DNA of 64,000 bases from Candidatus Vecturithrix sp. (GTDB lineage Bacteria > Moduliflexota > Moduliflexia > Moduliflexales > Moduliflexaceae). Below the pieces are notes generated by a model. It saw nothing but the letters and a program-made list of their open reading frames with translations. It ran no database searches and had not been told where the DNA came from. Positions 6,555 through 54,829 of the stretch are shown here, piece by piece. Both the position numbers and the translations under genes were made by a program. The stretch covers positions 5,048,545 through 5,112,544 of the forward strand of contig JAXGYF010000001.1 of assembly GCA_040772385.1 (NCBI GenBank), written 5' to 3'. Every line of letters begins with the position of its first letter. Position 1 is the first letter of the stretch.

Positions 6555-6800
6555 TCCCAGGAGCTGACAGGAATAGGTATTTTGTGCTGATGCCTCGTCC
6601 GGCCCAGCCATCAATGGCCGGTCTCAAAGCTGAAGCAGGCTGAAGCCCGCTCCCAAATTCCACAGGACGCTTCGGCGTCCTTCAACGTTGAGACTGGCGA
6701 TTGATCGCCAGGAGACAAGGCACACGAGTTTGCCCCTCACGTGATACCTACCCCTGGCAGCCTCCCAGGAGGCAGGGCTGTTAAGTTCTAAGACCTCACC
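6555..6800. repeat. Repeat family A intergenic element (contains near-palindrome CTGGCGATTGATCGCCAGG and GCTGAAGCAGGCTGAAGCCCGCT)
   Basis: Related copies occur at 20725-20885, 31745-31835, 35925-35965 (partial) and 37120-37215. This copy sits between the GRE-activase and GRE genes. Confidence 0.7.
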
Positions 6801-11019: not shown

Positions 11020-11035
11020 ATTGTGCTTACTCCTA

Positions 11036-11211
11036 TGAAACTACAAGGATTTCTCATAAGCAAGGATGTGTTATCCCTGGTTATGTGAAATCCCTGTAGT
11101 TTCACCTGCCTGGTGAGCATTCCGCTCATGATAACTCCTTTGAAACTACAAGGATTCCTCATAAGCAAGGATTGTTATCCCTGGTTATGGGAAATCCCTG
11201 TAGTTTCACCC
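11036..11211. repeat. Two tandem copies of repeat family B stem-loop element (CTACAAGGATTTCTCATAAGCAAGGAT...CCCTGGTTATGnGAAATCCCTGTAGTTTCAC)
   Basis: Each 65-70-bp copy is internally palindromic. Further copies lie at 17040-17111 and, partially, at 37008-37045. Confidence 0.7.
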
Positions 11212-11448
11212 TGCCGGGTTAAGCATACGCTCATTGATACTGCTCAAGGAATCAACCTGTCATTCTGCCTAATCGTGTCAACAAGAATGTATGCGAAAAT
11301 TATGACGACGCGCCGTGAAAACTTTCTTGACATGCGATGGCTTTTGTTATTCATCATTCGCAGAAGATGACATCATTTGCTTGGCATGGTATCTGTTTGG
11401 CGATGCCGTGATTTATAATCCTTGTTTCCAAAAGAAGAGGAAAGCATC

Positions 11449-17017: not shown

Positions 17018-17039
17018 TGAGTTTACGATCGCCCGACAT

Positions 17040-17111
17040 CATGAAACTACAGGGATTTCACATAAGCACGGATAACACACTCTTGCTTATGAGTGTGATC
17101 CTTGTAGTTTC
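17040..17111. repeat. Repeat family B stem-loop element
   Basis: GAAACTACAGGGATTTCACATAAGCACGGATAACAC...CTTGTAGTTTCAC, ending just before the etfB start codon. Confidence 0.65.
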
Positions 17112-20724: not shown

Positions 20725-20885
20725 AGATCTGACAAGGGTAGGTATTTGATGCTGACGCCTCGTCCGCCCAGCCATTAATGGCCGGTCTCAAGGCCGAAGC
20801 AGGCTGAAGCCCGCTGCTGAATTCCGAAGGGCGCTTCAGCGTCCTTCGGCTTTGAGACTGGCGATTGATCGCCAGGACGGGTCTT
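20725..20885. repeat. Repeat family A intergenic element
   Basis: Near-identical to the 6560-6715 copy: CCTCGTCCGCCCAGCCATTAATGGCCGGTCTCAAGGCCGAAGCAGGCTGAAGCCCGCT...CTGGCGATTGATCGCCAGG. Confidence 0.7.
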
Positions 20886-22368: not shown

Positions 22369-23523
22369 ATGAAACCTGTTGTCAGAGTATGCCTCAGTGT
22401 TTTGGTATGTTGGGGGTTAATCGTCAATACGGCCCATGCGGAAGATTCATCACGCAAATTGGGAGTGGACAAACGCCATGTGCTTGCCCAAGACATCCAA
22501 TTTTCGCCTTCAAATGAGGTGTTTCACTGGAAAATGGTGACACCCTGGTCAAGAGAGCTGCTTTTCTATGATATTGCCGCGCACTTCTGCGACAGCGTGC
22601 GTCTGGCTTCGGCCGGTCGTTTGGATATTCGGCCATTTTCAGCTGACGAGTTAGTCCCTGCCATGCAAACGTTCGATGCGGTCAGCCAGGGAATTGTCGA
22701 AGTCGGGCATGATTTTCCGGGCTACTGGAAGGAGAAAAATGAAGCCTTTGTAGCCTTTGCCTCTGTGCCTTTTGGGCTGGATGCCGAGGGGTATAACATC
22801 TGGCTCTATGAAAAAGGCGGACTTGAAATGCTGCAAGAGCTGTACGGCCGCTTCAATCTGTACGCCTTGCCCGGAGGGCAGGTCGGACAGGAAATGGGGC
22901 TGTTTTCCAACAAACGCGCCACGAAAATGGAAGATTTCGCCGGGATGCGCGTACGCACGGTTGGCTGGTATATGGAGATTCTTCACACCCTGGGCGCACT
23001 GGTCAGCCCGCTGCCCGGCGGCCAGGTCTATCTGGCCCTGGAACGCAACATGATTGACGCGGCAGAATTTTCGTCCCCGGCGATGAATTATGCCATGCGA
23101 TTTGACGCCGTGACAAAGTACAGCTTGCAGCCCGGCGTACACCAGCCGGGACTGCAGTGCAATCTCTTTTTCAACCAGGAGGCCTGGGACACGCTGCCGG
23201 AAGACCTGAAATGGATCGTAGATATTGCCGCGCGCGAAACCCAGCTTTGGAGCTACACCTGGGTCAATAACCTGAATGCCGAAGCCATTCGCAGATTTCA
23301 AGAACATATTGAAATCGTCATGATGGATCAAGCCACGCTGATTTCATTTCGAAAAATAACAAAACAGTACCTCGACGATTTGAAACAGCAAGATCCGGAT
23401 GTCAAGAAGGTGCTGGATTCTCAGGAAGCATTTCTCGAAGAGTATGCAGTGTGGCGCAACGCCAGAAGCGGCGCAGCCCCCTGGCCGTATAAAACCTATA
23501 TCTCCGGCAGAACCACAGAATAA
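22369..23523 (+). CDS. TRAP transporter substrate-binding protein (DctP family), orphan with no DctQM permease genes adjacent
   Basis: Signal peptide MKPVVRVCLSVLVCWGLIVNTAHA followed by a DctP-like fold. The ATG at 22369 has a GAAGGAGGGG RBS; the ORF track gives a longer 22279 start. Confidence 0.65.
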   Translation: MKPVVRVCLSVLVCWGLIVNTAHAEDSSRKLGVDKRHVLAQDIQFSPSNEVFHWKMVTPWSRELLFYDIAAHFCDSVRLASAGRLDIRPFSADELVPAMQTFDAVSQGIVEVGHDFPGYWKEKNEAFVAFASVPFGLDAEGYNIWLYEKGGLEMLQELYGRFNLYALPGGQVGQEMGLFSNKRATKMEDFAGMRVRTVGWYMEILHTLGALVSPLPGGQVYLALERNMIDAAEFSSPAMNYAMRFDAVTKYSLQPGVHQPGLQCNLFFNQEAWDTLPEDLKWIVDIAARETQLWSYTWVNNLNAEAIRRFQEHIEIVMMDQATLISFRKITKQYLDDLKQQDPDVKKVLDSQEAFLEEYAVWRNARSGAAPWPYKTYISGRTTE

Positions 23524-23705
23524 GCCGTTCGTCGTTCGCGCTTGAGCGCGTTCTTCCGCCTGAAGGCGGAACTACAAACGGAATAGGCCGTTCGTCGTTC
23601 GCGCTTGAGCGCGTTCTTCCGCCTGAAGGCGGAACTACAAACGGAATAGGCCGTTCGTCGTTCGCGCTTCAGCACGTTCTTCCGCCTGAAGGCGGAACGA
23701 CGAGC
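23523..23705. repeat. Three head-to-tail copies of a ~61-bp double-hairpin unit (repeat family C: GTTCGCGCTTGAGCGCGTTCTTCCGCCTGAAGGCGGAAC)
   Basis: Direct tandem repeats with no unique spacers. Each unit has two GC-rich stem-loops. They lie between the convergent TRAP-binding-protein and DeoR genes, and a fourth copy is at 29495-29560. Confidence 0.8.
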
Positions 23706-29486: not shown

Positions 29487-29494
29487 TATGAACT

Positions 29495-29560
29495 TCTATG
29501 CTCGTAGTTCGCGCTTTAGCGCGTTCTTCCGCCTGAAGGCGGAACTACGAACTCATCTAC
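29495..29560. repeat. Single copy of the repeat family C double-hairpin element
   Basis: CGTAGTTCGCGCTTTAGCGCGTTCTTCCGCCTGAAGGCGGAACTACG. Confidence 0.7.
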
Positions 29561-31744: not shown

Positions 31745-31835
31745 GGCTCAAAGCAAAAGCAGGCTAAAGCCAGCTAGAGTGCGCTTTAGCGTACTTCAGC
31801 TTTGAGCCTGGCGATTGATCGCCAGGCTTAAGTCT
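31745..31835. repeat. Repeat family A element (partial) plus a CTTAAGCCTTGACATCAATGTCAAGGCTCAAAG hairpin, inside the BMC operon
   Basis: Contains AAGCAGGCTAAAGCCAGCT...CTGGCGATTGATCGCCAGGC. Confidence 0.6.
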
Positions 31836-36021: not shown

Positions 36022-37008
36022 TTATTTATCGAGCGGACTCTTGACCGCGAGTGCGCCTGTTTGCATGACATGCGTGTAGATCATGGTGGTTGATACCTCT
36101 TCATGTCCGAGTAACTCCTGGACGATATGGATGTCATAGCCGTCTTCCAGCAGATGCGTGGCAAAACTGTGGCGGAACGCATGGCAGGTGACGCGTTTGG
36201 AAAGACCTGCGGCGCGGGCAGCCTGTTTGACAGCGCGCTGGAATCCTTCCCCGCTGGCATGATCGCGATAGGCCTTTCCGGATTGGGGATCGGTCGAAAG
36301 GGTTGCTGAGGGAAATACGTATTGCCAGATCCAGGCGGTTTCGGCGTGAGGATATTTTCGGGCCAGAGCAAAGGGCAAAGGCGTCCTGCCATGGCCAGCT
36401 TTCAGGTCATCTTCATGTAAGCGTTTGACCCTGGCAAGGTGATGCTGCAAAGGTTCTTGTAACACATCCGGCAGCATAGTGCGTCGGTCTTTCATCCCTT
36501 TACCGGAGCGGACGGTGATCTCACGCCGGGCAAAATCGAGGTCCTTGATGCGTAAGCACAGACATTCCATCATACGCAAACCGCTGCCATACAGCACCTG
36601 AGCCATGAGTTGATAGGTGCTTGAAAGCTGGTTGAGCACCCGTTGCACCTCTTCTCTGGTCAAGACGGTCGGAATATAGCTGGACTCTTTGGCTCGCTGA
36701 ACATGAATTTTGCCGGGCAGATCGATATTCAGGACTTTGCGATAGAGCAGAATGAGCGCGCAGAGCGCCTGACGCTGGGTCGTCGCCGTGACATGGCGTT
36801 TTACAGCTAAATGAGTGAGAAAGGCCTCGATCTCTGTTGTCCTCATCGTTGCCGGATGACGATAGCCATGAAAGCGTAGATATTGACGAATCCAGTCGAG
36901 ATACACTTCCTCCGTCCGCGGCGAATAGTGCTTGAAACGTATGGTTTTCCGGACTTGATCCAGCAGTTTGTTCAGTTCATCTGTTGATAACGTTCGTGTG
37001 CGATTCAT
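36022..37008 (-). CDS. intI: Integron integrase (IntI, tyrosine recombinase with the integron-specific additional domain)
   Basis: The IntI-specific insertion [24 protein letters not shown] aligns, by recall, to IntI1 [20 protein letters not shown]. Catalytic motifs [39 protein letters not shown] and a C-terminal AVKSPLD are present. Confidence 0.85.
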
Positions 37009-37215
37009 AAGAAACTACAAGGATTTCTCATAAGAAAAGGATTTCATTCAATCGTTCCAGAATCACAACAACGAATTCGTTCGTTTCTCAATTTGTTGTT
37101 GTGCTGGACAAGATTTCCTGGTGATCAATCGCCAGTCTCACAGCGGAAGGACGCTGAAGCGCCCTCCGGAATTCAGCAACGGGTTTCAACCTGCTTCAGC
37201 TTTGAGATCGGTCAT
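37008..37215. repeat. Inter-intI spacer with a partial family B repeat (37008-37045), hairpin CACAACAACGAATTCGTTCG...GTTGTTGTG, and a family A repeat (37120-37215)
   Basis: Direct sequence comparison with the other copies of families A and B. Confidence 0.6.
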
Positions 37216-37269
37216 TGGGTTGGATAGGCTTCCAGTAAGAAATTCTTGGCATTTCCTGACATCCACCAG

Positions 37270-38253
37270 TCAGCCTCTCCCATCCAGCGGACTTTTTATT
37301 TGTTGTCCGATCTTGTTCAACACATGCGAATAGATCATTGTGGTTTCCACATCCTTATGGCCTAACAGTTCCTGGACTGTTCGGATATCATAGCCGTCTT
37401 CCAGGAGATGCGTGGCAAAGCTGTGGCGCAGGGTACGACAATCGGCCGGTTTTGTGACCCCGGCAATATTTGCTGCTTCCTTGACCGCGCGTTGGAGCGT
37501 TGACTCATCGAGATGATGTCGCCGGGTTATGCCTGAGCGGGGATCCGCAGAGAGCTTACTGGCCGGGAAGACATATTGCCAGTTCCAATTTTTGTTGTCC
37601 GATTGATATTGCTGGGCCAGAATTGGCGGCAGGTAGACCGTGCCGCAGCCTTGCTTCAGATCGTATTCATGCAAAGCTCTGTCATAGCTCAGTTGCAACT
37701 TGATCAGCGGTTCCAGGCTGTGAGGCAGCACGGTGACATGATCTTCGTGTCCCTCGATGGTTCGTACCTGAATCTGGCTCTGCTTGAAATTCAGGTCATT
37801 CACGCGAAGTCGGAGACATTCCAGTACCTGGAGCCCGGCGCCATAGAGGAGGCGAATTGGAAGCTGATAGGCCGGAACGACCGCATTCAGGATGCGGTAC
37901 ACCTCATCTTTGGAGAGGATGTTTGGGAGATGCTGAGGGCATTTAGCGTACAAACGGTTGAGGTGTTCGGCGGTCTCTTCCATCTGAAGCACCTCGCGAT
38001 ACAAAAAACTCAGGGCACTCAGGGCTTGATTTTGGGTTGAGGCAGCCACGCCATCGTTGGCGGCCAGGTGAGTTAGAAAGGTCTTCACTTCTGCCACGCC
38101 CATATTTTGCGGATGCCGCTTCTCATGAAACAGAATAAAGCGTCGAATCCACTGAATGTAGGTCTTTTCGGTCCGTTTGGCGTACTCCAGCGTTTGGAGG
38201 AGATCGCTGACCTGATCAAGCAATTTTTTTTGCTGAGGCGGGTGGAGTGCCAT
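37270..38253 (-). CDS. intI: Integron integrase (second IntI paralog, tandem with the first)
   Basis: Carries the same additional domain ([25 protein letters not shown]) and catalytic region ([37 protein letters not shown]...IKSPLDG). The ORF track extends to 38322; the Met at 38253 gives a typical IntI length. Confidence 0.8.
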
Positions 38254-38473
38254 GGTATTCTTTCCCCCTACATCAAGGTTCTTTAGTAGAATTTCACCAG
38301 GACATGCCTTTTTGCTTGACAAAAATTGAAAAAACCCGAAGATTTTTTTACACCTGCATAACTACAAGAACAGAGGAATACGTAAGAATTTTCAGTGGAG
38401 ATGTTTTTGTCAAGTATTTTCTTCCGGGAAACTCTCTTTTCGTGTATGAACGCGAGGGGGGGGCATCAGAGTG

Positions 38474-38849
38474 TATGAAAACCCGATCGACATTGAAGCG
38501 AGGGCAACGAGGCACGCTCAAACTGGCTCAGCACTATGGCGACCAGTTATTATATGTGCGGTACCGGTATGATCCGGTTCGGAAGAAACGTTTAAAAACC
38601 GTTGAACTGATTATTGAGGAAACTGATTGGGAGCCTGCTGAACAGTTTGCGCCGGATCAGATTGTTGGGGTTCAGGTTGCCATGGAAGAGACCGCTCTTC
38701 AGAAAGCGATTAGAAAGGCCGGAGGGGTCTGGAACCGACGTCGGAAAGTGTGGGAGGTTCGATACGATCGAGTGTGTGAGTTAGATTTGGAAACTCGAAT
38801 GGTTGCCGAAGTTGAAGAGATGTATGCAGCGGTGCAGGGGGTTGAGTAG
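38474..38849 (+). CDS. Hypothetical protein, first ORF downstream of the intI upstream region (possible cassette)
   Basis: An ORF with no recognisable domains. The start at the MKTRSTLKRGQRG Met is inferred, and the track ORF begins earlier at 38247. Confidence 0.3.
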
Positions 38850-38924
38850 GCTGCGGCGGATGCACTGTTGTTTTTTCTAGGCGACACAAGTTTCGTCTCA
38901 GAAACAAGACGAGAGAGAGGTTCT

Positions 38925-39100
38925 GAAATGTTTCGTATATACGAAACAAGTTTATTATATGCGAAACATGTTGCGTATATAATAAACCGGAGCACATGGC
39001 TGGCGGAAAAGTTTCGTATATACGTAACTTTTTTTGTGTCGTATATACGTAACAAATTTCGTATATACGTAACATGTTACGTATATACGAAACGGTTTCG
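38925..39100. repeat. Array of ~6 copies of a perfect 16-bp palindrome TTTCGTATATACGAAA (variants GTTACGTATATACGTAAC, TGTCGTATATACGTAAC) within ~180 bp
   Basis: Copies at about 38931, 38962 (degenerate), 39011, 39037, 39056 and 39077, with irregular 5-15-bp spacing, lying immediately left of the IS91-like element end. Confidence 0.8.
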
Positions 39101-39266
39101 GCCGCAAGTACGCAGCCTAATTCCTGTTGAACAAAGCCGCAGGGCGGCAGAAGAGTTTCGTGCTCCTCCCCACCATTTTTCTCTTGCCATGATCTGAACA
39201 GGTGTCATCCTCCTCCATGATGTATTCATCCTGCGTATGAACCTCATTCATCATGGAGGAGATACG

Positions 39267-40133
39267 ATGACCGCTCTGAGACACCGTTTCATTGAAGACC
39301 TGCAATTGCAGGGGAAGTCCGACCGGACGCAACAGGCCTACGTCCGCGCCGTGCGGATGCTGGCCGACCACTTCCACACCCCGCCGGATCAGCTCACCGA
39401 CGAGCAGATTCGGCAGTATTTCCTGTACGTCAAGAACACTCGACACTGGTCGTTTTCGACCATGAAACAGGCCCTGTGCGCTATCAAGACCTTGTATACG
39501 CAGACGCTGCACCGGGACTGGGGCATTCTGGACGTGATTCGTCCGCCGACATCGCAGACGCTGCCCGATGTCCTGACCCACGACGAGGTGCAGCGGCTGC
39601 TTCAGGCGGTGCGTCTGCCGCACTATCGGCTGTGCTTGACCACGATCTACTCGTGCGGATTACGCCTGACCGAAGGCGCCCAACTCCGGGTCACGGACAT
39701 TGACAGTGCCCGGATGCTCGTGCATGTGCGCCACGGGAAAGGGGACAAAGACCGCTATGTGCCGTTACCCCAACGTACCCTGGAGCTGCTGCGCCAGTAT
39801 TGGCTGACGCACCGCCATCCGGTGTGGCTGTTTCCGGCTGGCGGCGCTGGGCCGGTGCAGCGCCAGCCTGCTTCCGCCCCTCTCTCCGTCAGCACGCTGC
39901 AAAAAGCCTGTCGTCTCGCGAAGCAGGAGGCCGGGATCACCAAAACCGTCTCGGTCCACAGTCTGCGCCATGCCTATGCCACCCATCTGCTGGAAGCCGG
40001 CGTGAGCCTGCGCATGATTCAAGCCTATCTCGGACATACCTCTCCCCAGACCACGGCTCGTTACACGCATCTGACCTCCCAGGCGCAGACCAGCGCGGGC
40101 GTCGTCATTGACACCCTGATGCAGGATCTCTAA
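39267..40133 (+). CDS. Tyrosine recombinase (phage-integrase family) encoded upstream of the IS91-family transposase
   Basis: C-terminal catalytic region HSLRHAYATHLLEAGVSLRMIQAYLGHTSPQTTARYTHL. Such upstream recombinase genes occur in a subset of IS91-family members. Confidence 0.8.
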   Translation: MTALRHRFIEDLQLQGKSDRTQQAYVRAVRMLADHFHTPPDQLTDEQIRQYFLYVKNTRHWSFSTMKQALCAIKTLYTQTLHRDWGILDVIRPPTSQTLPDVLTHDEVQRLLQAVRLPHYRLCLTTIYSCGLRLTEGAQLRVTDIDSARMLVHVRHGKGDKDRYVPLPQRTLELLRQYWLTHRHPVWLFPAGGAGPVQRQPASAPLSVSTLQKACRLAKQEAGITKTVSVHSLRHAYATHLLEAGVSLRMIQAYLGHTSPQTTARYTHLTSQAQTSAGVVIDTLMQDL

Positions 40134-40154
40134 GCCCCTCATCGGAGGCCCGAG

Positions 40155-41291
40155 ATGCTGGAATTGGCTGACATCTTCCAGGCCTACGGTCCCGCGTATG
40201 AGGCGAAATACGGCGACCGCATGCCGCCCAGCCATCACGACGCGCTGTGGGACATCGCCCACTGCCGCACGCCCCTGATGGGGGGCGAGGTGTTCTGGTG
40301 TGCCCAGTGCCAGGACTTTGTCTACAGTTATCATTCCTGCGGCAACCGCCATTGTCCCAAATGCGGCGGTGACCGGGCCGACGCCTGGCGCGACGCCCAA
40401 CTCAAGAAGCTGCTCCCCGTGCCGTATTTTCTCGTGACGTTCACTCTGCCCCATTCCCTCAACGCCATCGCCCGTTCCCATCAACACGTGATCGATGACC
40501 TGCTCTTCAAAACGTCCGCGGATGCACTCCACACGCTCGCCTTGAATCCGGAGTGGCTCGGCGGCACGATTGGCATGGTGGGCGTCCTCCACACCTGGGA
40601 TCGGGCGATGGGCTATCACGTGCATGTCCATTATCTTGTGCCGGCCGGGGGGATCGATCCGGGCACCGGGGCCTGGATCCCCTCCCATCCGAAATTTCTC
40701 GTGCCCGCCTCGGCCCTGCGCGAGGTCTTCCGGGCCAAATTTCGCGACGCCCTGTACGCCGCCGATTCAGCCCTCTTCGCCCAGGTCCCGCCGGAGACCT
40801 GGAGCAAACAGTGGGTCGTGCACTGCAAGGCCGTCGGAGACGGACGCACGGCCCTGAAATACCTGGCCCCCTACGTCGCCCGCGTGGCCCTCTCGAATCG
40901 GCGACTGGTGACACTCGATGAGGGACAGGTCACGTTCCGCTATAAGCCCCACACGAGGCCCTGGACGACCATGACGCTCGACGTGATGAGCTTCATGCAG
41001 CGCTTCTTACAACACGTCCTGCCCAAAGGCTTCCAGAAAATCCGGTACACCGGCTTCCTGCACCCCAACGCCCGCACCATGTTCACGGCCCTACAAGCGC
41101 AGCTCGTCGCAGAGGCCGCCTCCGAGCGTCTGCCAGAGGTGCTGGCCGCCACGTTCGGCCTGGAGATCGGCAACGGGACGCCCAACGACGACCCGCCTGA
41201 CGACCCCCCGCGCGGTTGTCCGCACTGCGGTGGTCCGCTGGCCTTCGTCGGTCGCTTCCCTCGCGCCCCCCATCGACGAGGTCCTCCATGA
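40155..41291 (+). CDS. IS91-family transposase (N-terminal Zn-binding domain plus Y2 HUH transposase domain)
   Basis: CxxC...CxxC zinc-binding region (WCAQCQD...CGNRHCPKCG), an HUH-like HVHVHYLVP, and the catalytic Tyr region KYLAPYVARVALSNRRL. Confidence 0.8.
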   Translation: MLELADIFQAYGPAYEAKYGDRMPPSHHDALWDIAHCRTPLMGGEVFWCAQCQDFVYSYHSCGNRHCPKCGGDRADAWRDAQLKKLLPVPYFLVTFTLPHSLNAIARSHQHVIDDLLFKTSADALHTLALNPEWLGGTIGMVGVLHTWDRAMGYHVHVHYLVPAGGIDPGTGAWIPSHPKFLVPASALREVFRAKFRDALYAADSALFAQVPPETWSKQWVVHCKAVGDGRTALKYLAPYVARVALSNRRLVTLDEGQVTFRYKPHTRPWTTMTLDVMSFMQRFLQHVLPKGFQKIRYTGFLHPNARTMFTALQAQLVAEAASERLPEVLAATFGLEIGNGTPNDDPPDDPPRGCPHCGGPLAFVGRFPRAPHRRGPP

Positions 41292-41708
41292 CACGACGAA
41301 TACAACAGCGGACGATTGCCCCACCACGACGGGTTCGGAAAGTCTCCATTTTTCGGCGCACCGTCCCCGTCTGCCCATCGCCCAATGATCGCCTCATCTC
41401 TGTCCGATCACCAGGTGTTCACGGCCTCAACCTTCCATCATGGAGGTACTTGTCGCGAACAACGAAGAGGCATCTTCCCCCATCTGTGCCCCGCACACCG
41501 TCTCCACACTCACGTCATTTCGGAGCAAAATCCAAATAAGACCTTCTGAGAATTTTTTCCTTGACATGATGGGAAATCGCCCCCATATAACGAGGGGTGG
41601 GCTTGTTCAACAGAGATTATGTGCCGGATACTCGTCACATGAATCTTTAATCCGTTAGAACCTCCTTATAATAAGAGAAATTTACTCAATAAATCATAAG
41701 ATTATGTT

Positions 41709-44114
41709 ATGAATATACCACCAAGATTACAACATAGAATTGTTGATTTTCTTATATCTCTTCCGAGTATTCATGATAATAATAGTCAACGATCATTAAT
41801 CTACCAAGCCGGTCTAGATACAGAGTTACAAGGTCAGATTTCATTTGATAAACCAGCTATGCAGTTTGCCCTCTTCCTTGTGTCAACCTTAATAAAATAT
41901 GGTAAACTTAGTGATGGGCGATACGCTATTGAAGCTATTTTGGAGGCAGCAAAGAATTTTGTAGGACAAGATAGGAAAATATATTGTGAAACATTGATAA
42001 ATGAACTGCATGATTATACAATTGAAAAAGCTGATACACCATTATCAGATGATATCCCATTTTTAAAAAAGAGAAATTCTATAGTAGATGCTAAATACGA
42101 TCCCAAATTAGTCACAGAAATAAGGATAACTCCACCTGACTTGACTAATCAACAACAGTTACAAAATACTGGTGATAATTCTTTTGAGATAGATGCTTTT
42201 AAATCAAAGCTCTTAGATTATGAATTGAGTCAGTTAGGCTTACCTTCCTTGATTTTCCATCGGAACAATTTAGAAAGTGAGGGATTGCAGCTTATTCGTG
42301 AGGGTATTCTGCCTGTCATTTTGATTCAAGGTCTCCCTGGCTATGGAAAGACTGTATTGCTTGGTGAACTTGCCAAAAAGATTGGCCATGAATTTCAATA
42401 TACTTTGGTGTTAAATTTTTCTGGTCCAGCTTCTATAGAACCTTCTTATGTCATCGAAGAAATAAATACATTTCTCAATAAACTTGGCCGTGGTATTGAT
42501 ACAGAAATACTCAGAAAACAGAGTACTCAACGCTCTCTTCAAATTCTTATTCCTCAGATGATGGATCTACATCTTCTTCTACTTTTAGACGCAGTAGATG
42601 GTGTACCTCCTGGACAAATTGAAACATTTTTGCAATTCTTAACGGCAACCCCTAAAAATCGACTCATTATGACCGCTCGTTATAGAATCGTAAATAGGTC
42701 GAATGCTCATATATTACATGTGCCTCCATTATCGAACAAAGAAACTGCCGATTTTGTTGAACAGTATACTAAATCAATGAAGATCGGGGTTAATATAAAG
42801 GATTTATTGGAAAAACTCCCCAACAACATTAAAGAACATCCTCAAGCATTAAGCATGATTTTAGCAAATTTAGTTGATATTCCATTTGAACTTTTAGTAA
42901 TGCAAAGCTTCCATGACGATACATTAATCCTTCAACAGTTGGCTAAAAACATCCTTCTTGCTATAGATAAGGAAGTGTTGACTTGTTTAGTATTTATGAT
43001 AGTATTAGATGATCTTGACTTTATGGATACCCTTAAAATTTTAGAAATAAATCCTCCTAAAGGTCTGGTGAATTCTATTAATCTGTTATTGGAAAAGTCT
43101 TTGATTTATCGCCATGAAAATTCTTATCGTGTGCCTTCAATTATACATGAAGGGGTATTAAATTTAATTCCTGATATTGCAGAGACTATTCTAAATCAAA
43201 TAGGTTATATCTTAGAATTAAAAATCAACAGAATGCATTTACAAAGGGTATCAGATCATTTTGATAATCTTATTCCCATAGTTGTTACTATTATTCATCA
43301 TTTTTATCAAATGCGATCTTATGAATGGGTAACTAAACTTGTTATTGATGAATTCTTAGAATTTATCAATATGCGGGGTTTTTGGAAAGAATATTGGCTC
43401 ATTTTACGAATATCTTTTGATGCTGCAAAAAGAATAAACCAATTAAATATCTTTTCCAAAATAGGGTTTAGGATTGCTCGTAAATCTTTACAAATCCACG
43501 ATATTGATACTGGGAGTCAGGTATTAAGTGATGTGGAACGAGTTATTGGTGTTGATGGTAATACAATGGAGCATGCAGAATTTTGGAGTCATAAAGCTCT
43601 TTTCACCGAATTAACTGGATATACGGAGAATGCCAAAGAAGAACTACTGAAAAGTCTCCAAATTCGAGAATCGCTCTATGATGCTGAAGGTATTGCTGTT
43701 ATCCAAAAACTTTTAGGTAATATTCATTTGCGTTTAAAAGAATCAGATATAGCACGTCAATATTATGAGTCAGCATTGATATCTATCAATGAAAATACTT
43801 CCCAATTCAAACATATTATCGAAGTGGAAACGAGTCTCGCTTTGTGTGATCTGATAGATAATAAATTGGAATCGGCTGAATCCACACTTAGAAAAGTTAT
43901 TCAAAATTGTAAGAGTAAAGGCTATTTAGCTGGACTATCAAGAGCTTACTACAATTTGGCTTTAGTACTTGATCGTCAAAAACGTGTTGCTGAAGCTTTT
44001 TATTATGCTGAAATTGCTTCTAAGGAAGCTTTAAAAACAGATAAAGATATTATACTCGGTTCAGGAATACTTATGTGGCGATTAAAAAATTTAAAAGGAA
44101 CCTCTTGTAAATAA
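41709..44114 (+). CDS. STAND-class NTPase (NB-ARC-like P-loop) with an N-terminal alpha-helical adaptor/effector-associated-like domain and C-terminal TPR-like repeats
   Basis: Walker A LIQGLPGYGKTVLLGELAKK, Walker B HLLLLLDAVDG, a helical C-terminal half with TPR-like periodicity, and a 100-aa N-terminal helical domain. AT-rich at ~36% GC. Confidence 0.65.
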   Translation: MNIPPRLQHRIVDFLISLPSIHDNNSQRSLIYQAGLDTELQGQISFDKPAMQFALFLVSTLIKYGKLSDGRYAIEAILEAAKNFVGQDRKIYCETLINELHDYTIEKADTPLSDDIPFLKKRNSIVDAKYDPKLVTEIRITPPDLTNQQQLQNTGDNSFEIDAFKSKLLDYELSQLGLPSLIFHRNNLESEGLQLIREGILPVILIQGLPGYGKTVLLGELAKKIGHEFQYTLVLNFSGPASIEPSYVIEEINTFLNKLGRGIDTEILRKQSTQRSLQILIPQMMDLHLLLLLDAVDGVPPGQIETFLQFLTATPKNRLIMTARYRIVNRSNAHILHVPPLSNKETADFVEQYTKSMKIGVNIKDLLEKLPNNIKEHPQALSMILANLVDIPFELLVMQSFHDDTLILQQLAKNILLAIDKEVLTCLVFMIVLDDLDFMDTLKILEINPPKGLVNSINLLLEKSLIYRHENSYRVPSIIHEGVLNLIPDIAETILNQIGYILELKINRMHLQRVSDHFDNLIPIVVTIIHHFYQMRSYEWVTKLVIDEFLEFINMRGFWKEYWLILRISFDAAKRINQLNIFSKIGFRIARKSLQIHDIDTGSQVLSDVERVIGVDGNTMEHAEFWSHKALFTELTGYTENAKEELLKSLQIRESLYDAEGIAVIQKLLGNIHLRLKESDIARQYYESALISINENTSQFKHIIEVETSLALCDLIDNKLESAESTLRKVIQNCKSKGYLAGLSRAYYNLALVLDRQKRVAEAFYYAEIASKEALKTDKDIILGSGILMWRLKNLKGTSCK

Positions 44115-44123
44115 GGAGTATGT

Positions 44124-44342
44124 ATGTGGTTTCAAGAAAGTAGTGAGATTATCACTCGATTATTCAGTTTATCAATTTTGTACTATGAGGCTAGTGGTGA
44201 CGCTAATTGTAATTGGCGAGAATTGGACAAGCAACTCACAATAGAAAAAGAATTTCTTTTATCAAATGGTCATGATTTGATAGGAATAGATGCTATTTTT
44301 GAAGAAGTCAACATGATTATTGGGTTTATCCTAAGTAAATAA
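44124..44342 (+). CDS. Small hypothetical protein (72 aa) immediately downstream of the STAND NTPase
   Basis: An ORF tightly coupled to the STAND gene, starting 10 nt after its stop with a GGAG RBS. Confidence 0.35.
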   Translation: MWFQESSEIITRLFSLSILYYEASGDANCNWRELDKQLTIEKEFLLSNGHDLIGIDAIFEEVNMIIGFILSK

Positions 44343-44449
44343 ACTATAGCATTATTCATTCCCGTTGATCGTAACCCTGACAGGGTTCCAAACCCTGTCA
44401 GGGTTGTAAATGATCAATGTCGATGCATAATGCTATATTACGCTGAGAT

Positions 44450-46405
44450 ATGTGGAAAGAAGAGACGATAAATAAGCTTAAAATTCTTTTAGATGTTGCG
44501 AGAAGGGAGGTTCCTTATTATACAAGTATATTACCTCCAGTATCCATTCAATTACCGGATGATATTTTTGGTTACCTTAAAAATTTTCCTCTCCTTTCTC
44601 GTCAAATTTTGCAAACTCAAAAAGCACTATTATGTTCTTCACATGGAGATATATCTTCTTGGCGCAAAATACGAACCACAGGGACTACAGGTGAACCGGT
44701 AGAAGTTATTTTAAATAAAGAGACTTGGACACTTGAAAGTGAGTTGTTTGCCTCACATATAGATCGTTATTTACAACGCCTTGATTGGCATCAAAAAAAG
44801 ATATTTTATTTAAATCTACATCCTAGTGCAAGCTCCCGAACTCTTCCTTCTAAATGGCATGATGAAGCACAAATGATAAAATGGAATCTAATTCGAATTT
44901 GGCAATTATCTGATGAAAAATTTATGAATTCCATTGAATGCCTTAATGAAAGTATTATTACTACCATGGCTTCTGTCGTAGAACTCATTTGCTCTCGCAT
45001 ATTAAAATCAGGCATCATAAACAAAATTCATCCTTCCCTTATTGTTTTATCAGGAGAAACTATCCTTCCAGAGACAAGAATGCTTATAAACGAGGTGTTT
45101 AAATGTCCTGTTACCTCTCTCTATACAATGGCTGAGGTTGGAATTATTGGATCAGAACAAATAGATCCAAATGTTTATCAAGTAGAAGAATCTGCTGTAA
45201 TAGTAGAAATTGTTGACGAAAACGGTAATCGAGTTCCTCAAGGAATTGAAGGAGAGATTATTATTACCCCTTTAAACAATGTGGTAATGCCACTTATTCG
45301 GTATCGTACTGGAGATCGGGGTTATTGGGTTGACATTGATTCGTCTCCTCCAATTTTTAGATTAGTTGAGGCTCGCCGTTCCTATCACTTGATTACAGAA
45401 AATAATGCTTCGATGAACGTTGTTAGATTTACAAAGATGTTAGCTTCTCTCAATGTTGATCGTTATCGGATGGATCAGAAACAGGATGGGACTGTTATTT
45501 TCTCTTATTATTCTCAAAAGAGCGCATTTAGTGAAATGGACTATTCCCTTGTTAAATCAGTAATTCGTGGTGCCTTTGGTCCTGAAGTCAGGATAGAGTT
45601 TTATCAGGTTGAAGATCGTAACACTCTTAGTCAAGCTCCAGATCAGATTCAACCATCACGAGAATATATTACTTCTCCTAACGCGGAACCATTAGACCCG
45701 AGTTTAGTAAAATTAGCTTCTTGGCTTCGTCAACAATTATTTGATGAGATCCAGATAGATGCCGCTATTCTTACGGGCTCTGCCCTTGATCATAGGACAA
45801 CAACTCGTTTTAGCGATATTGACTTAGTAGTTTTAGTTCAGAATAATCCAATGGACTCTTATTGGATTAAGGTATCACGTAACCTTATATCTCATATTCC
45901 ACAGCTTTCCATAAATTTTGACTATATACGTGGTCTTTCATATCGCTCACCATTGCTTGCTTGTCGTTTATTATGTGAACAAATCCCAGTAATTGGTAAA
46001 GTAGATGAATATATTCTGCCATGGCCTAAACTGGAAAATTTACGACTTCAAGGATTATATTGGTCTCAAGATACTATCGGAACACTTTGGTTAAGGCTTG
46101 TAAATTTAAAAGTATTAAGTATGGATCCAATACGTGAGGCATGGATAGCTACAAAGCTTATTCTGGAGGCTCTTCGTTACCGTTATCTTGTTCGAAGTGA
46201 GCACGAGACATCATCTGTTTGCATATTAAATAAGCTAGAGAAAGATATTGAAATTCCGGATTTATGGAAAAGAGACTTATTTGACATGTTTAATGTTGCA
46301 AGAGAACATCTCCCTCCACCTCTCATTAATAGTAATATAGTTGAACATTATTTACAATTAGCTTTGTCATATATTCGTTTTATTCAGATTGACTTAATGC
46401 GATGA
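44450..46405 (+). CDS. Fusion protein: PaaK/F390-synthetase-like adenylate-forming enzyme (N-terminal ~430 aa) plus minimal Pol-beta-type nucleotidyltransferase domain (possibly followed by a HEPN-like helical region)
   Basis: ANL motifs IRTTGTTGEPVEV and IRYRTGDRGYW. A C-terminal GSALDHRTTTRFSDIDLVVLV minimal nucleotidyltransferase signature. The tail carries an RYLVRSEH R-x(4-6)-H-like motif. Confidence 0.6.
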   Translation: MWKEETINKLKILLDVARREVPYYTSILPPVSIQLPDDIFGYLKNFPLLSRQILQTQKALLCSSHGDISSWRKIRTTGTTGEPVEVILNKETWTLESELFASHIDRYLQRLDWHQKKIFYLNLHPSASSRTLPSKWHDEAQMIKWNLIRIWQLSDEKFMNSIECLNESIITTMASVVELICSRILKSGIINKIHPSLIVLSGETILPETRMLINEVFKCPVTSLYTMAEVGIIGSEQIDPNVYQVEESAVIVEIVDENGNRVPQGIEGEIIITPLNNVVMPLIRYRTGDRGYWVDIDSSPPIFRLVEARRSYHLITENNASMNVVRFTKMLASLNVDRYRMDQKQDGTVIFSYYSQKSAFSEMDYSLVKSVIRGAFGPEVRIEFYQVEDRNTLSQAPDQIQPSREYITSPNAEPLDPSLVKLASWLRQQLFDEIQIDAAILTGSALDHRTTTRFSDIDLVVLVQNNPMDSYWIKVSRNLISHIPQLSINFDYIRGLSYRSPLLACRLLCEQIPVIGKVDEYILPWPKLENLRLQGLYWSQDTIGTLWLRLVNLKVLSMDPIREAWIATKLILEALRYRYLVRSEHETSSVCILNKLEKDIEIPDLWKRDLFDMFNVAREHLPPPLINSNIVEHYLQLALSYIRFIQIDLMR

Positions 46406-46422
46406 GGTAAAGCAGAGAAAGG

Positions 46423-46534
46423 TTCTAACGATCTGCTTGCACCGGAGCGCAAAGGGCGGGCGGAAAAATGGGTTGCTGAATGTCGGGCTTGGGTGCCGCC
46501 CGCCCTTTCCGCCCGGTGAAGCAGGGCGTTCGGC
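46423..46534 (+). other. attC-like cassette recombination site (~110 bp): TTCTAAC ... GGGCGGGCGG ... CCGCCCGCCC ... GCAGGGCGTTCGGCG
   Basis: An imperfect inverted repeat with an RYYYAAC-like 5' end and a GTTCGGC 3' end. It sits immediately after the stop of the 44450-46405 gene. The same architecture recurs at 55512-55621, 59898-60008 and 61102-61215, and the 3' end alone matches at 63986-63992. Confidence 0.55.
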
Positions 46535-46564
46535 GTGTACGCTTTGTAGAAAAGGAACAAATCT

Positions 46565-51300: not shown

Positions 51301-52274
51301 TTGAGAAAAAGAGGTAATTTTAAGCTAACACCTCAGGTTTTCGCTCGACTGAAAGAGAACAATTTACCTAAGAAATATCTGAGTAAATTAAAAAATTTGG
51401 AAAATAAAGAATTCTCTACTGAAGAAGAGCTTTTTACTAATGTCCAAACATTTGTAGATGATAATAAAATTTTTGAAGAATATAAGGCATTATTTTTGCG
51501 ATACGCAAAAAACGAAAAGTGGAAAACTATTATTTTATGTGATGGATTAGATGAAGTTCCTAAAAAAGAAGACAAACGACAGAAAATTATTCAAGAATTA
51601 ATTGATTTCAGTAATGAATTTGAGGAAAGTCAGTTTGTTATCACATGTCGTATTGCTGCCTCAGAATATCATTTTGAAGGTTTTACCTATGTTGAAATTG
51701 CAGATTTTGATGAAAAACAAATTGCCTCTTTTATTAGGAATTGGTTTATGAATAGTTCTTCATTGGCGAACAATTTTCTCGAAGAGTTTGGGAAAATTGG
51801 TAATGAACGACTTCGTGATCTTGCTAGAACCCCTCTGATTCTTACACTTTTATGTATTTCTTATGAGAACACTCTTGAACTACCAATTCGACGCTCAGAA
51901 ATTTATAAAGAGGCTCTTGATGCATTATTGGTGAGATGGAGTGCTACTCGGGGAATTAAACGAGATGAAATATATAACCATTTATCTCTTGGCAGAAAAC
52001 AACAAATGTTTGCCCGTATTGCTGCGGAGACTTTCCAAAAGAGTCAGTATCTCATTAAACAAGAAGTTCTGGAAGAAAAAATTATTAAGTATTTAAGAAA
52101 TTTACCGCAAGTAAGTATGGATGAAGAGATTAATGGAACAGCAATTCTTAAAGCTATTGAATCCCAACATGGGATTTTTGTTGAGAGAGCCCAGGGCATT
52201 TACTCATTTTCTCATCTAACCTTTCAAGAATATTATGCCGCAAAATATATTTATGAACACCTTGATAAAGATAT
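51142..52274 (+). pseudogene. C-terminal fragment of the NACHT NTPase gene (Walker B ILCDGLDEV, TCR sensor, TPLILTLLC), truncated at its 3' side by IS91-family copy 2
   Basis: The 51142-52341 ORF lacks a Walker A motif. Its last residues (...LNKAAGRQKSFASLPTIFLLP) are encoded by the IS91-like left end. Confidence 0.6.
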
Positions 52275-52415
52275 GTTGAACAAAGCCGCAGGGCGGCAGA
52301 AGAGTTTCGCGTCCCTCCCCACCATTTTTCTCTTGCCATGATCTGAGGCGGTGTCATCCTGCTCCATGATGTATTCATGAGATCTCTGAACCTCTTTCAT
52401 CATGGAGGCCCTCCT

Positions 52416-53282
52416 ATGACCGCTCTCAGACACCGATTCATCGAAGACCTGCAGTTGCAAGGCACGTCTGACCGGACGCAACAGGCGTACGTCCGCGCGG
52501 TGCGGATGCTCGCCGAACACTTTCACACCCCGCCGGATCAGCTCACGGACGAGCAGATTCGGCAGTATGTCCTGTACGTCAAAAACACCCGACACTGGTC
52601 GTGTTCGACCATGAAACAGGCCCTCTGCGCCATCAAAACCTTCTACACCCAGACCGTACACCGGGAGTGGGGTCTGCTGGACGTGATTCGCCCGCCAAAA
52701 TCGCAGACCCTGCCCGATGTCCTGACCCACGACGAGGCGCAACGACTGCTTCAGGCGGTGCGCCTGCCGCACTACCGGCTGTGCTTGACGACCATCTACT
52801 CGTGTGGCTTGCGCCTGACTGAAGGCGCCCAGCTCCGGGTGACAGACATCGACAGCGCCCGGATGCTCGTGCATGTCCGCCGCGGCAAAGGGGACAAAGA
52901 CCGGTATGTGCCCCTCCCACAGCGCACCCTGGAACTCCTGCGCCAGTATTGGCTCACGCACCGCCATCCAATCTGGCTCTTTCCGGCCGGTGGGGCCGGC
53001 CCGGTGCAGCGTCACCCCGCCTCGACGCCCATCTCCGTGAGCACGCTGCAAAAAGCCTGTCGCCTCGCGAAGCAGGAGGCGGGCATCACCACACGGGTGT
53101 CGGTCCACAGTCTGCGCCATGCCTACGCCACCCATCTGCTGGAAGCCGGGGTCAGCCTGCGGATGATTCAAGCGTATTTGGGACATACGTCGCCCCAAAT
53201 CACGGCCCGTTACACCCATCTCACCTCCCAGGCCCAGACCAGCGCGGGCGCCGTCATTGACGAGCTGATGCAGGATCTGTAA
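52416..53282 (+). CDS. Tyrosine recombinase of IS91-family copy 2
   Basis: Paralog of the 39267-40133 gene. Confidence 0.8.
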   Translation: MTALRHRFIEDLQLQGTSDRTQQAYVRAVRMLAEHFHTPPDQLTDEQIRQYVLYVKNTRHWSCSTMKQALCAIKTFYTQTVHREWGLLDVIRPPKSQTLPDVLTHDEAQRLLQAVRLPHYRLCLTTIYSCGLRLTEGAQLRVTDIDSARMLVHVRRGKGDKDRYVPLPQRTLELLRQYWLTHRHPIWLFPAGGAGPVQRHPASTPISVSTLQKACRLAKQEAGITTRVSVHSLRHAYATHLLEAGVSLRMIQAYLGHTSPQITARYTHLTSQAQTSAGAVIDELMQDL

Positions 53283-53309
53283 CCCTCCACACATCTTAGG
53301 AGGCAACGG

Positions 53310-54446
53310 ATGCTGGAATTGGCCGACATCTTTCAGGAATATGGCCCTGCGTATGAGGCGACGTACGGCGACCGCATGCTGCCCAGCCACCGGGATGCGC
53401 TGTGGGATATCGCCCACTGCCGCACGCCTCTGATGGGGGGCGAGGTGTTCTGGTGCGAGCACTGCCAGGATGTTGTGTACAGCTACCACTCCTGCGGCAA
53501 CCGCCATTGTCCGAAATGCGGCGGCGACCGGGCCGATGCCTGGCGCGACGCCCAACTCAAGAAGCTGCTGCCCGTCCCCTATTTTCTCGTGACCGTCACC
53601 TTGCCCCATGCCCTGAATCCGATGGCGCGATCGCACCAGCAGCTCGTCTATGATCTGCTGTTCAAAACATCGGCGGACGCGCTCCAGACCCTGGCCCTGA
53701 ATCCAGAGTGGCTCGGCGGCACGATTGGCCTGGTGGGCGTCTTACACACCTGGGATCGGGCGATGGGGTATCACGTGCATGTCCACTATCTTGTCCCAGC
53801 CGGCGGGATCGATCCGGACACCGGAGCATGGATGCCGTCGCATCCGAAATTCTTGGTCCCCGCTTCGGCCCTGCGGGAGGTCTTCCGGGCGAAATTCCGC
53901 GACGCTCTGCACGCCGCCGATCCGGCCCTCTTCGCGCAGGTCCCACCCGAGACCTGGAGCAAACAGTGGGTGGTGCACGGCAAGGCCGTCGGAGACGGAC
54001 GCACCGCCCTGACATATCTGGCCCCCTACATTGCCCGCGTCGCCCTGTCCAATCGGAGACTGGTCGCCCTGGAAGCCGGGCACGTCACGTTCCGCTATAC
54101 GCCGCGCACGAAGCCCTGGAGGACCATGACGCTCGACGTCATGCGCTTCATGCAGCGCTTCTTACAGCATGTGTTGCCCAAAGGCTTCCCAAAAATCCGG
54201 TATACCGGCTTCCTGCACCCCAACGCCCGGACCACGCTGGCGGCCCTCCAGGAGCAGCTCGCCACAGAGGCCGCTGACGAACGCCTGCCAGCGGCGTTGG
54301 CGGCCACCTTCGGTCTGCAGATTGGCGCCAGCGCGTCCGACGACGCCCCCCCTGACGAGACGCCACGCTGTTGTCCGCACTGCGGCGGGCCGCTGGCCTT
54401 CATCGGCCGCTTCCCGCGATCCCCTCATCGCCGAGGTCCCCCATGA
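53310..54446 (+). CDS. IS91-family transposase, copy 2
   Basis: Paralog of the 40155-41291 gene. Confidence 0.8.
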   Translation: MLELADIFQEYGPAYEATYGDRMLPSHRDALWDIAHCRTPLMGGEVFWCEHCQDVVYSYHSCGNRHCPKCGGDRADAWRDAQLKKLLPVPYFLVTVTLPHALNPMARSHQQLVYDLLFKTSADALQTLALNPEWLGGTIGLVGVLHTWDRAMGYHVHVHYLVPAGGIDPDTGAWMPSHPKFLVPASALREVFRAKFRDALHAADPALFAQVPPETWSKQWVVHGKAVGDGRTALTYLAPYIARVALSNRRLVALEAGHVTFRYTPRTKPWRTMTLDVMRFMQRFLQHVLPKGFPKIRYTGFLHPNARTTLAALQEQLATEAADERLPAALAATFGLQIGASASDDAPPDETPRCCPHCGGPLAFIGRFPRSPHRRGPP

Positions 54447-54829
54447 CACCACGAGCCCGACACCTCACCGTCATCTTCCCACAACCGGTTCGGAAAATCC
54501 TCTTTTTCCGGCGCATCGTCCTCGTCTGCCCATCGCCCGGAAATCGCCTCATGGCGGTGCGAATACACCATACTCACGGCCTCGATATTCCCTTCTGGCG
54601 GCACTCGCCGCGCGCATGCAAGGGGCACATTCCGCCATTCCCGAGGATTTTTCAGCCTCCACAGCCTGGTCATTTCGGAGCAAAATCCAAAGAACACATT
54701 CTCCATATTTTTTCCTTGACATGTCGGCAGATCGCCCCCATACAAAGAGGGGTGGGCTTGTTCAACAGAGATTATGTGCCGGATTCTCGTCACATGAATC
54801 TTTAATCCGTTAGCAGGGAAAAGGTGAGA

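Follow-up and report, generated by a model that had tools for sequence, protein, structure and literature searches.

The stretch of DNA analysed here (the window) comprises 64,000 nucleotides of Candidatus Vecturithrix sp. (contig JAXGYF010000001.1, positions 5,048,545 to 5,112,544 of the forward strand) and contains a genuine chromosomal integron. Between a small gene, orf124, and the attI-type site of this integron lies an array of seven short palindromic units (38931-39092), and the array, its neighbouring gene and their possible part in cassette recombination are the subject of this report. Two integrase genes lie upstream and the cassette array lies to the right of the palindromes. From left to right, the features of the region are:

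36022-37008, minus strand: intI-A, first gene of a tandem integron integrase pair (TIGR02249, 439.8 bits; Pfam Phage_integrase and Phage_int_SAM_4)
37270-38253, minus strand: intI-B, with its start set at an internal ATG, divergent from orf124 (TIGR02249, 405.6 bits)
38310-38323, plus strand: T-run and TTGACAA, a candidate -35 element reading into orf124 and towards the cassettes
38475-38849, plus strand: orf124, coding for a small protein of 124 amino acids with a basic N-terminal half, the proposed binder of the array
38869-38908: two possible further units, degenerate and in 20-bp register with the array (weak evidence)
38929-38988: distal block of the array, units U1-U3, spacing 20 and 20 bp
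38931-38946: U1, TTTCGTATATACGAAA, the sole perfect 16-mer
38951-38966: U2, TTTATTATATGCGAAA, degenerate
38971-38986: U3, TTGCGTATATAATAAA, degenerate
39010-39094: attI-proximal block, units U4-U7, spacing 25, 20 and 20 bp, a four-site geometry kept in other phyla
39012-39027: U4, TTTCGTATATACGTAA
39037-39052: U5, TGTCGTATATACGTAA
39057-39072: U6, TTTCGTATATACGTAA
39077-39092: U7, TTACGTATATACGAAA
39116-39132, plus strand: attI-type simple site, with L box CCTAAT, a 4-nt spacer and R box GTTGAAC
39125-41658, plus strand: copy 1 of an IS91-family insertion sequence (IS), inserted in the attI core, its ends taken from alignment with copy 2 (52274-54813)

The initial annotation had reported six copies of a perfect 16-bp palindrome at irregular spacing. 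An array is indeed present at that place, since TTTCGTATATACGAAA at up to 2 mismatches has 5 matches in the 64-kb window, all of them inside 38931-39092, against 0.01 expected. There are, however, seven units rather than six, and just one of them is perfect: U4, U5, U6 and U7 are each 1-2 bases off the 16-mer, while the degenerate U2 and U3 are mirror images of each other. Nor is the spacing irregular, as the units start 20, 20, 41, 25, 20 and 20 bp apart. A 10-bp core, CGTATATACG, is perfect in 5 of the 7 units and has no occurrence outside the array in a scan of the window, and the array motif as such was found neither elsewhere in the window nor in the flanks of 20 related loci. The phased palindrome dimer has no exact match in collections of genome and metagenome contigs, which do not include the source genome. 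The two possible further units to the left were noticed in a repeat search, in which 38869-38893 is 72-76% identical to the aligned units at 38929 and 38949. Neighbouring units combine into larger palindromes, U6-U7 forming a perfect one of 36 bp and U2-U3 one of 38 bp that is 89% complementary, which means that the orientation of the half-sites alternates about every 10 bp. A hairpin of 6-7 bp is possible in every unit, and four of the seven lack symmetry, with no change within the unit to compensate for it.

That the setting is an integron follows from integrases of the integron subfamily, an attI simple site (the activity of which is predicted) and attC cassettes in one orientation. Both upstream genes, which had been called integron integrases from the outset, score above the curated cut-off of the TIGR02249 integron-integrase model (265 bits). 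An attC covariance model has five matches, all on the plus strand, at 46422, 55511, 59897, 61101 and 63853, and the attC at 46420-46545 folds on its bottom strand with z = -6.2. The suggestion that the array lies at an attI boundary also stands, as the attI-type simple site follows it; the GTTGAAC that had been noted at the IS junction (39126-39132) is the R box of this site, and crossover would take place between G39126 and T39127. With the IS removed, attI can be reconstructed as ...GCAGCCTAATTCCTGTT + AGAACCTCC... The array itself is not part of the IS, again as first proposed: the two IS copies align from 39125 onward only and the DNA left of copy 2 is unrelated, so the array is outside the element, about 30 bp away.

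The first array unit begins 80 bp past the stop codon of orf124, and a search for an adjacent gene whose product might bind the array, which had been recommended earlier, yields this gene (38475-38849) as a strong candidate. Its product has no family match in Pfam, NCBIfam or PHROG, nor does it resemble Xis or any other excisionase family in the same databases. There are at least 209 close homologues, all unnamed, and by profile search (E up to 0.001) the family comprises 2949 clusters at 50% identity, nearly all of which are stand-alone proteins of 110-130 amino acids. Residues 1-45 contain 13 K/R against 3 D/E. The AlphaFold2 model has a mean pLDDT (predicted local distance difference test score) of 82.8 and no fold match in the PDB, and the modelled fold is not ribbon-helix-helix. 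The window protein has no match to Pfam DUF5710; 11 of 29 family members match it weakly (best E-value 3.7e-4), and membership of DUF5710 was rejected, the Pfam gathering threshold not being reached. An internal duplication was likewise rejected, as BLASTP of the two halves against each other gave nothing.

The pairing of gene and array is not peculiar to Candidatus Vecturithrix. In a pattern scan with one genome for each species, an orf124 homologue was found in 291 species-level genomes, and the loci span Blastocatellia, Methylomirabilota/Rokubacteria, Geobacter and other Desulfuromonadales, Oscillochloris, Heliobacteria, Sedimentisphaerales, Nitrospirota and Proteobacteria. Geomonas oryzae (L058) and Oscillochloris trichoides (L043) are among the carriers that can be cultivated. 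The recurring layout is an integrase gene (not always present), the orf124 homologue, palindromes of 16-18 bp phased at 20/25 bp, an attI core and attC cassettes. Among relatives with long context the closest is locus L001 (70% identity), which has two integrases, the open reading frame (ORF) and then, beginning right past the stop codon, an array of about 11 copies of the same palindrome as in the window; L002 and L003 have the same layout with other palindromes. Where enough downstream DNA was available (70 loci), 49 have at least 3 units and 41 at least 4, as compared with 75 and 30, respectively, of 905 control windows. In 20 loci examined in detail, the units are confined to about 250 bp after the gene and almost none occur elsewhere; there are none inside orf124 and, save for one weak match in L072, none upstream of it, and no locus of the 20 has a second array.

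The palindrome varies by lineage, with TTTCGTATATACGAAA, CATCTTATATAAGATG, TGTCTACTAGTAGACA, TTTATGATATCATAAA, CATCCACTAGTGGATG and TTCCTTATATAAGGAA among the forms found, and the half-site across the family can be written T-T-T-C-T-W-A-T. Half-sites are 96% identical where the proteins are more than 85% identical, and about 56% identical where the proteins share less than 55% (Spearman coefficient of site and protein similarity 0.17, a value reached by 3 of 500 permutations). Such co-variation is suggestive of a pairing between ORF124 and the palindrome.

Spacing is conserved. Inter-unit gaps have two sharp peaks, one at 20 bp with 91 gaps and the other at 24-25 bp with 50, and the cassette-proximal block of 24/25-20-20, represented by U4-U7 in the window, is found in at least 11 other loci from different phyla (L001, L003, L007, L027, L046, L056, L066, L076, L077, L078 and L083). 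Past the last unit there is an attI-type simple site, consisting of a CTAA box, 5-9 bp and GTT, in about 25 loci. This site is near-identical in L007 (CGGTTTCGGCCGCAGGTACGCAGCCTAAACCCTGTTAGCC) and the window, where the sequences after the last unit are GCAGCCTAAACCCTGTTAGCC and GCAGCCTAATTCCTGTTGAAC, respectively. The first GTT is invariant across loci. Measured from the middle of the final palindrome, its distance is 30-34 bp in 33 of 44 loci, 40-42 bp in another 5, among them the window, and 23 bp in 3 more, so that the distance classes are about one helical turn (~10 bp) apart. In L012 this GTT is the true junction between attI and cassette, because the sequence that follows it recurs after the first attC. 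Using a model built from the window's own attCs, same-strand attCs were found downstream in L007, L012, L043, L053, L023, L020, L010, L025, L021 and L045; several of the attC-bearing orf124 loci have no adjacent intI. The idea that orf124 and the array form a cassette themselves, with the array as a giant attC, was rejected: there is no left-hand R''/L'' site complementary to CTAA..GTT between the stop codon and the array, no attI-like site between intI and orf124, and the intergenic region is conserved.

All-against-all clustering of the flanking ORFs shows the integron integrase to be the sole strongly recurrent neighbour (37 of 82 orf124 loci). It is nearly always upstream of orf124 and divergent from it; L044 and L060 have both genes in one orientation, the integrase stop codon lying 13-16 bp ahead of the start of orf124, and array and attI come next. 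The module of gene and array thus stays between intI and attI whatever the orientation of intI. To look from the side of the integrase, 80 metagenome loci were picked by similarity to the window IntI (51-59% identity), and none of the 54 that have at least 440 bp on the attI side carries an array of 4 or more units. The arrays therefore track orf124 and not IntI, which disfavours IntI as the binder. The module is optional among integrons, and the nearest neighbours of module-linked IntIs are other module-linked IntIs in 26 of 32 cases and module-less ones in 6. A tblastn search of a plasmid collection returned a single partial orf124 match, so the module is not a trait of the plasmid-borne integrons in that collection.

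Taken together, the array's anatomy, the conserved linkage of orf124, palindromes, attI and cassettes in many phyla, the conserved spacings, the lineage-specific palindromes and the optional nature of the module suggest that the array is probably an accessory arm of the chromosomal-integron attI, bound by a protein of the ORF124 family and controlling cassette recombination at attI. The array had been likened at first to sites bound cooperatively by a dimeric protein, and this prediction is in keeping with the phased palindromes, their conservation across phyla and their lineage-specific sequence. ORF124 dimers would occupy half-sites about every 10 bp, cooperatively and on one face of the helix, and the nucleoprotein complex would end whole helical turns (one to two) from the L box of IntI. 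There it could contact IntI and control recombination, whether by enhancing it, by filtering it topologically or by holding it back, and it may affect transcription into the cassettes as well. A broader claim, put forward tentatively and with somewhat less than even confidence, is that some integrons encode their own attI accessory factor, a new DNA-binding family acting on a phased arm in register with IntI. It is possible, to a similar degree, that this protein, assembled on the arm, sets the efficiency or the direction of cassette capture, which would make ORF124 the first integron-encoded recombination cofactor.

Several observations weigh against the proposal. The thresholds for scoring arrays were lenient, such that 3 units are reached in 8% of control windows. 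Protein and site co-vary weakly, and the trend is confounded because shared ancestry yields the same one. Roughly every second orf124 locus lacks an intI within 4 kb, and no orf124 homologue is present in any of the 47 intI-centred loci that have 700 bp or more on the attI side, which means that the module is not required for integron function generally. Finally, a purely transcriptional role of the array is plausible. In that case ORF124 would be a repressor and the array an operator or roadblock gating read-through into the cassettes, with no direct role in recombination; in a variant, the array would occlude a promoter overlapping the last unit and the L box. The array does lie between a co-directional gene and the cassettes, a conserved TTGACAA is found upstream of orf124, the L box (TCTAAT or CCTAAT) looks similar to a -10 hexamer, and terminator-like scores are obtained for U1 and for a stem at 38853-38871. 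On the other hand, a consensus promoter scan gave no promoter-like match on either strand of 38150-39300, there is no operator at the promoter of orf124 itself, and a roadblock would need neither 4-11 sites nor a distance to the GTT that is kept in helical register across phyla. Both forms of this explanation are considered unlikely, though they deserve some weight.

The remaining explanations fare worse. Were the palindromes extra IntI sites, comparable to attI1's directly repeated sites, DR1 and DR2, ORF124 would be an unrelated passenger. Their position matches, DR1/DR2 likewise being located to the intI side of a simple site (PMC8946536, PMC3146285), and some inter-unit junctions read GTTACGT, near the GTTACGC of DR1. 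However, the palindromes of most lineages are without a GTT core while the GTT of attI is invariant, the module-less intI loci have no array (0/54), arrays persist without an adjacent intI, and Pfam finds no arm-binding domain in the window IntI proteins, just SAM-like and catalytic domains. IntI-bound sites of the attI1 type were rejected on the first two of these grounds, this explanation as a whole is very improbable, and IntI or the IS-borne recombinase, both suggested as binders in the initial annotation, are unlikely to fill that role. It is equally hard to credit that the array acts as DNA or RNA structure, with hairpins or cruciforms terminating or stabilising the orf124 transcript or altering single-stranded DNA near attI. 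The hairpin of each unit, the larger palindromes of U6-U7 and U2-U3 and the terminator-like score of U1 would fit; yet it is the sequence of the units, and not mere pairing, that is kept within the array, the four asymmetric units of the window are uncompensated, and the 20-bp phasing together with the fixed distance to the GTT implies a requirement for duplex DNA with one helix face. Almost no credence is given to the view that the array is the terminus of a mobile element, a set of replication-origin iterons, a partition centromere or a dispersed repeat of the REP (repetitive extragenic palindromic) or MITE (miniature inverted-repeat transposable element) kind. Several short repeats do lie beside the IS, assemblies often break just past the gene, and IS91-type elements recur downstream, but the IS boundaries leave the array out, intI alone recurs as a neighbour to the exclusion of Rep, ParA/ParM or transposase genes, and the motif has no other occurrence in 64 kb. 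Two readings offered at the outset are thereby lost: an iteron origin was rejected since the units are palindromes rather than direct iterons and no Rep gene lies nearby or is conserved as a neighbour, and a transposon end of the Tn7 or Mu type was rejected since there is one array per locus and no conserved transposase. A parC-like type II centromere was rejected as well, neither a ParM/ParA NTPase nor a ParR-type adaptor being found in the neighbourhood or among the recurrent neighbours.

The proposed arm can be compared with several known systems. In ParR-parC, omega-heptad and MetJ-type arrays, short sites at about 10-11 bp or multiples of it nucleate a cooperative filament on one face of the DNA. 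The array differs from these in having neither a partition NTPase nor the logic of a regulated operon, and in being fixed in location to a recombination core; the fold modelled for ORF124 would also set it apart from ribbon-helix-helix proteins. In lambda attP, ordered sites flanking the core (for Xis, IHF and Fis) set the efficiency and direction of integration; Xis is a small basic protein encoded beside int, and Int holds the attP arms through an N-terminal arm-binding domain. No such domain was detected by Pfam in the window IntI, and ORF124 is unlike the Xis/excisionase families. At the Xer sites cer and psi, some 150-200 bp beside the core site are bound by PepA, ArgR and ArcA, which are not recombinases and shape the synapse. 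Here too an accessory stretch lies beside the core of a tyrosine recombinase, and both window integrases match the XerC and XerD models, below cut-off. Unlike ORF124, however, the Xer accessory proteins are host housekeeping proteins, and their sites are not tandem phased palindromes and have no dedicated adjacent gene. Accessory proteins of Xer sites are named in a preprint (bioRxiv 10.64898/2026.02.23.706985). Closest in position are DR1 and DR2, repeats found right on the intI side of the simple site, outside the crossover (PMC8946536 and PMC3146285), and described in PMC8946536 as accessory sites of attI1 that favour attI1 x attC recombination. They are two direct, core-site-like repeats bound by IntI1 itself, whereas the array consists of 4-11 palindromes that are unrelated to GTTRRRY and tied to a separate gene. 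For chromosomal integrons, this 2022 review (PMC8946536) states that attIA x attC recombination by IntIA appears to need an unidentified accessory factor.

The array and orf124 are viewed as a new, optional component of the known integron system; a search of the literature, which covered the searchable library and is no proof of novelty, found no description of the gene-array module. Integrons are described as consisting of three parts (intI, attI and promoter), to which the module would add a fourth, optional one. If the proposal is correct, an unannotated family of about 3000 protein clusters would gain a testable role, and a natural system would be at hand for the dependence of chromosomal integrons on accessory factors. 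One small protein and ~170 bp of DNA would make a simple experimental handle on the control of attI recombination.

The contigs of many public assemblies stop 100-300 bp past the orf124 homologue, inside the array or just beyond it (L008, L014, L017, L038, L047, L052, L057, L062, L064, L075 and others). Short-read assemblies appear to be broken by the arrays or by adjoining multi-copy IS elements, and with unannotated arrays at such breaks, heads of integrons of this kind may go unnoticed or be given wrong limits.

The tandem integrases intI-A and intI-B are about 47% identical and co-oriented, yet there is a single attI; a tandem pair is also kept in L001 (3564-4526 and 4830-5828). Between intI-B and orf124, the window and loci L001, L003 and L007 share TTTTT(T/G)CTTGACAA without variation, and the T-run with TTGACAA may be a promoter element for orf124 and the cassettes. 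The same intergenic region keeps an inverted motif, TCAAG(C/T)ATTTTC-N5-GGAAA (38411-38435 in the window; also in L001, L003 and L007), which may be a regulator site for orf124 and the cassettes. The genes to the right of the array have a low GC content. Features beyond the attI-type site are:

39237-40133: tyrosine recombinase of the IS
40155-41291: Y2/IS91 transposase of the IS (Pfam Y2_Tnp and Zn_Tnp_IS91)
41659-46541, plus strand: first cassette region after attI, with an EAD8-NACHT-TPR NTPase and a 651-residue protein, ending with the attC at 46422-46541 (Pfam)

The IS91-family element, equipped with an Xer/IntI-like tyrosine recombinase of its own, is placed exactly at GTT core sites of integrons, with copy 1 in attI and copy 2 after an ATCTAAC...GTT site resembling attC. 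Its left end, GTT|GAAC(A/T)AA(A/G)CCGC, is also found after the array in L005, L039 and L062, and in the longer form GTT|GAAC(A/T)AA(A/G)CCGC..GCGG it occurs in at least 5 loci from other phyla, these three included (L005 5660-5700, L039 2395-4400, L062 4510-4567, L054 ~7048 and L068 ~5070). When joined, the two IS ends fold as an attC-like hairpin (bottom strand, z = -7.5). Two routes of insertion can be envisaged, IS91-type rolling-circle targeting of GAAC or cassette-like recombination at G|TT.

In the first cassette region, 41709-44114 is a gene for a STAND NTPase of the EAD8-NACHT/NB-ARC-TPR type and 44450-46405 codes for the 651-residue protein, which has weak matches to AMP-binding and Pol-beta nucleotidyltransferase domains. 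This cassette, which heads the array, has the look of an antiphage-defence cassette. Scans for Rfam families and for tRNAs found nothing in the window.

Other repeats in the window include three tandem copies of a GC-rich, 63-bp hairpin repeat (GTTCGCGCTTGAGCGCGTTCTTCCGCCTGAAGGCGGAAC) at 23515-23703, with a fourth copy 5.8 kb away (29488-29550). A dispersed repeat of about 110 bp, with copies 83-90% identical, occurs at 6602-6713, 20766-20877, 31778-31826 and 37116-37227 (inverted), one copy lying between intI-A and intI-B; the repeat is possibly a MITE or a REP-like element. A repeat of 44-52 bp (TGAAACTACAAGGATTTCTCATAAGCA...) is present in direct and inverted orientation at 11024-11218, 17030-17093 and 36998-37041, with one copy at the start of intI-A.
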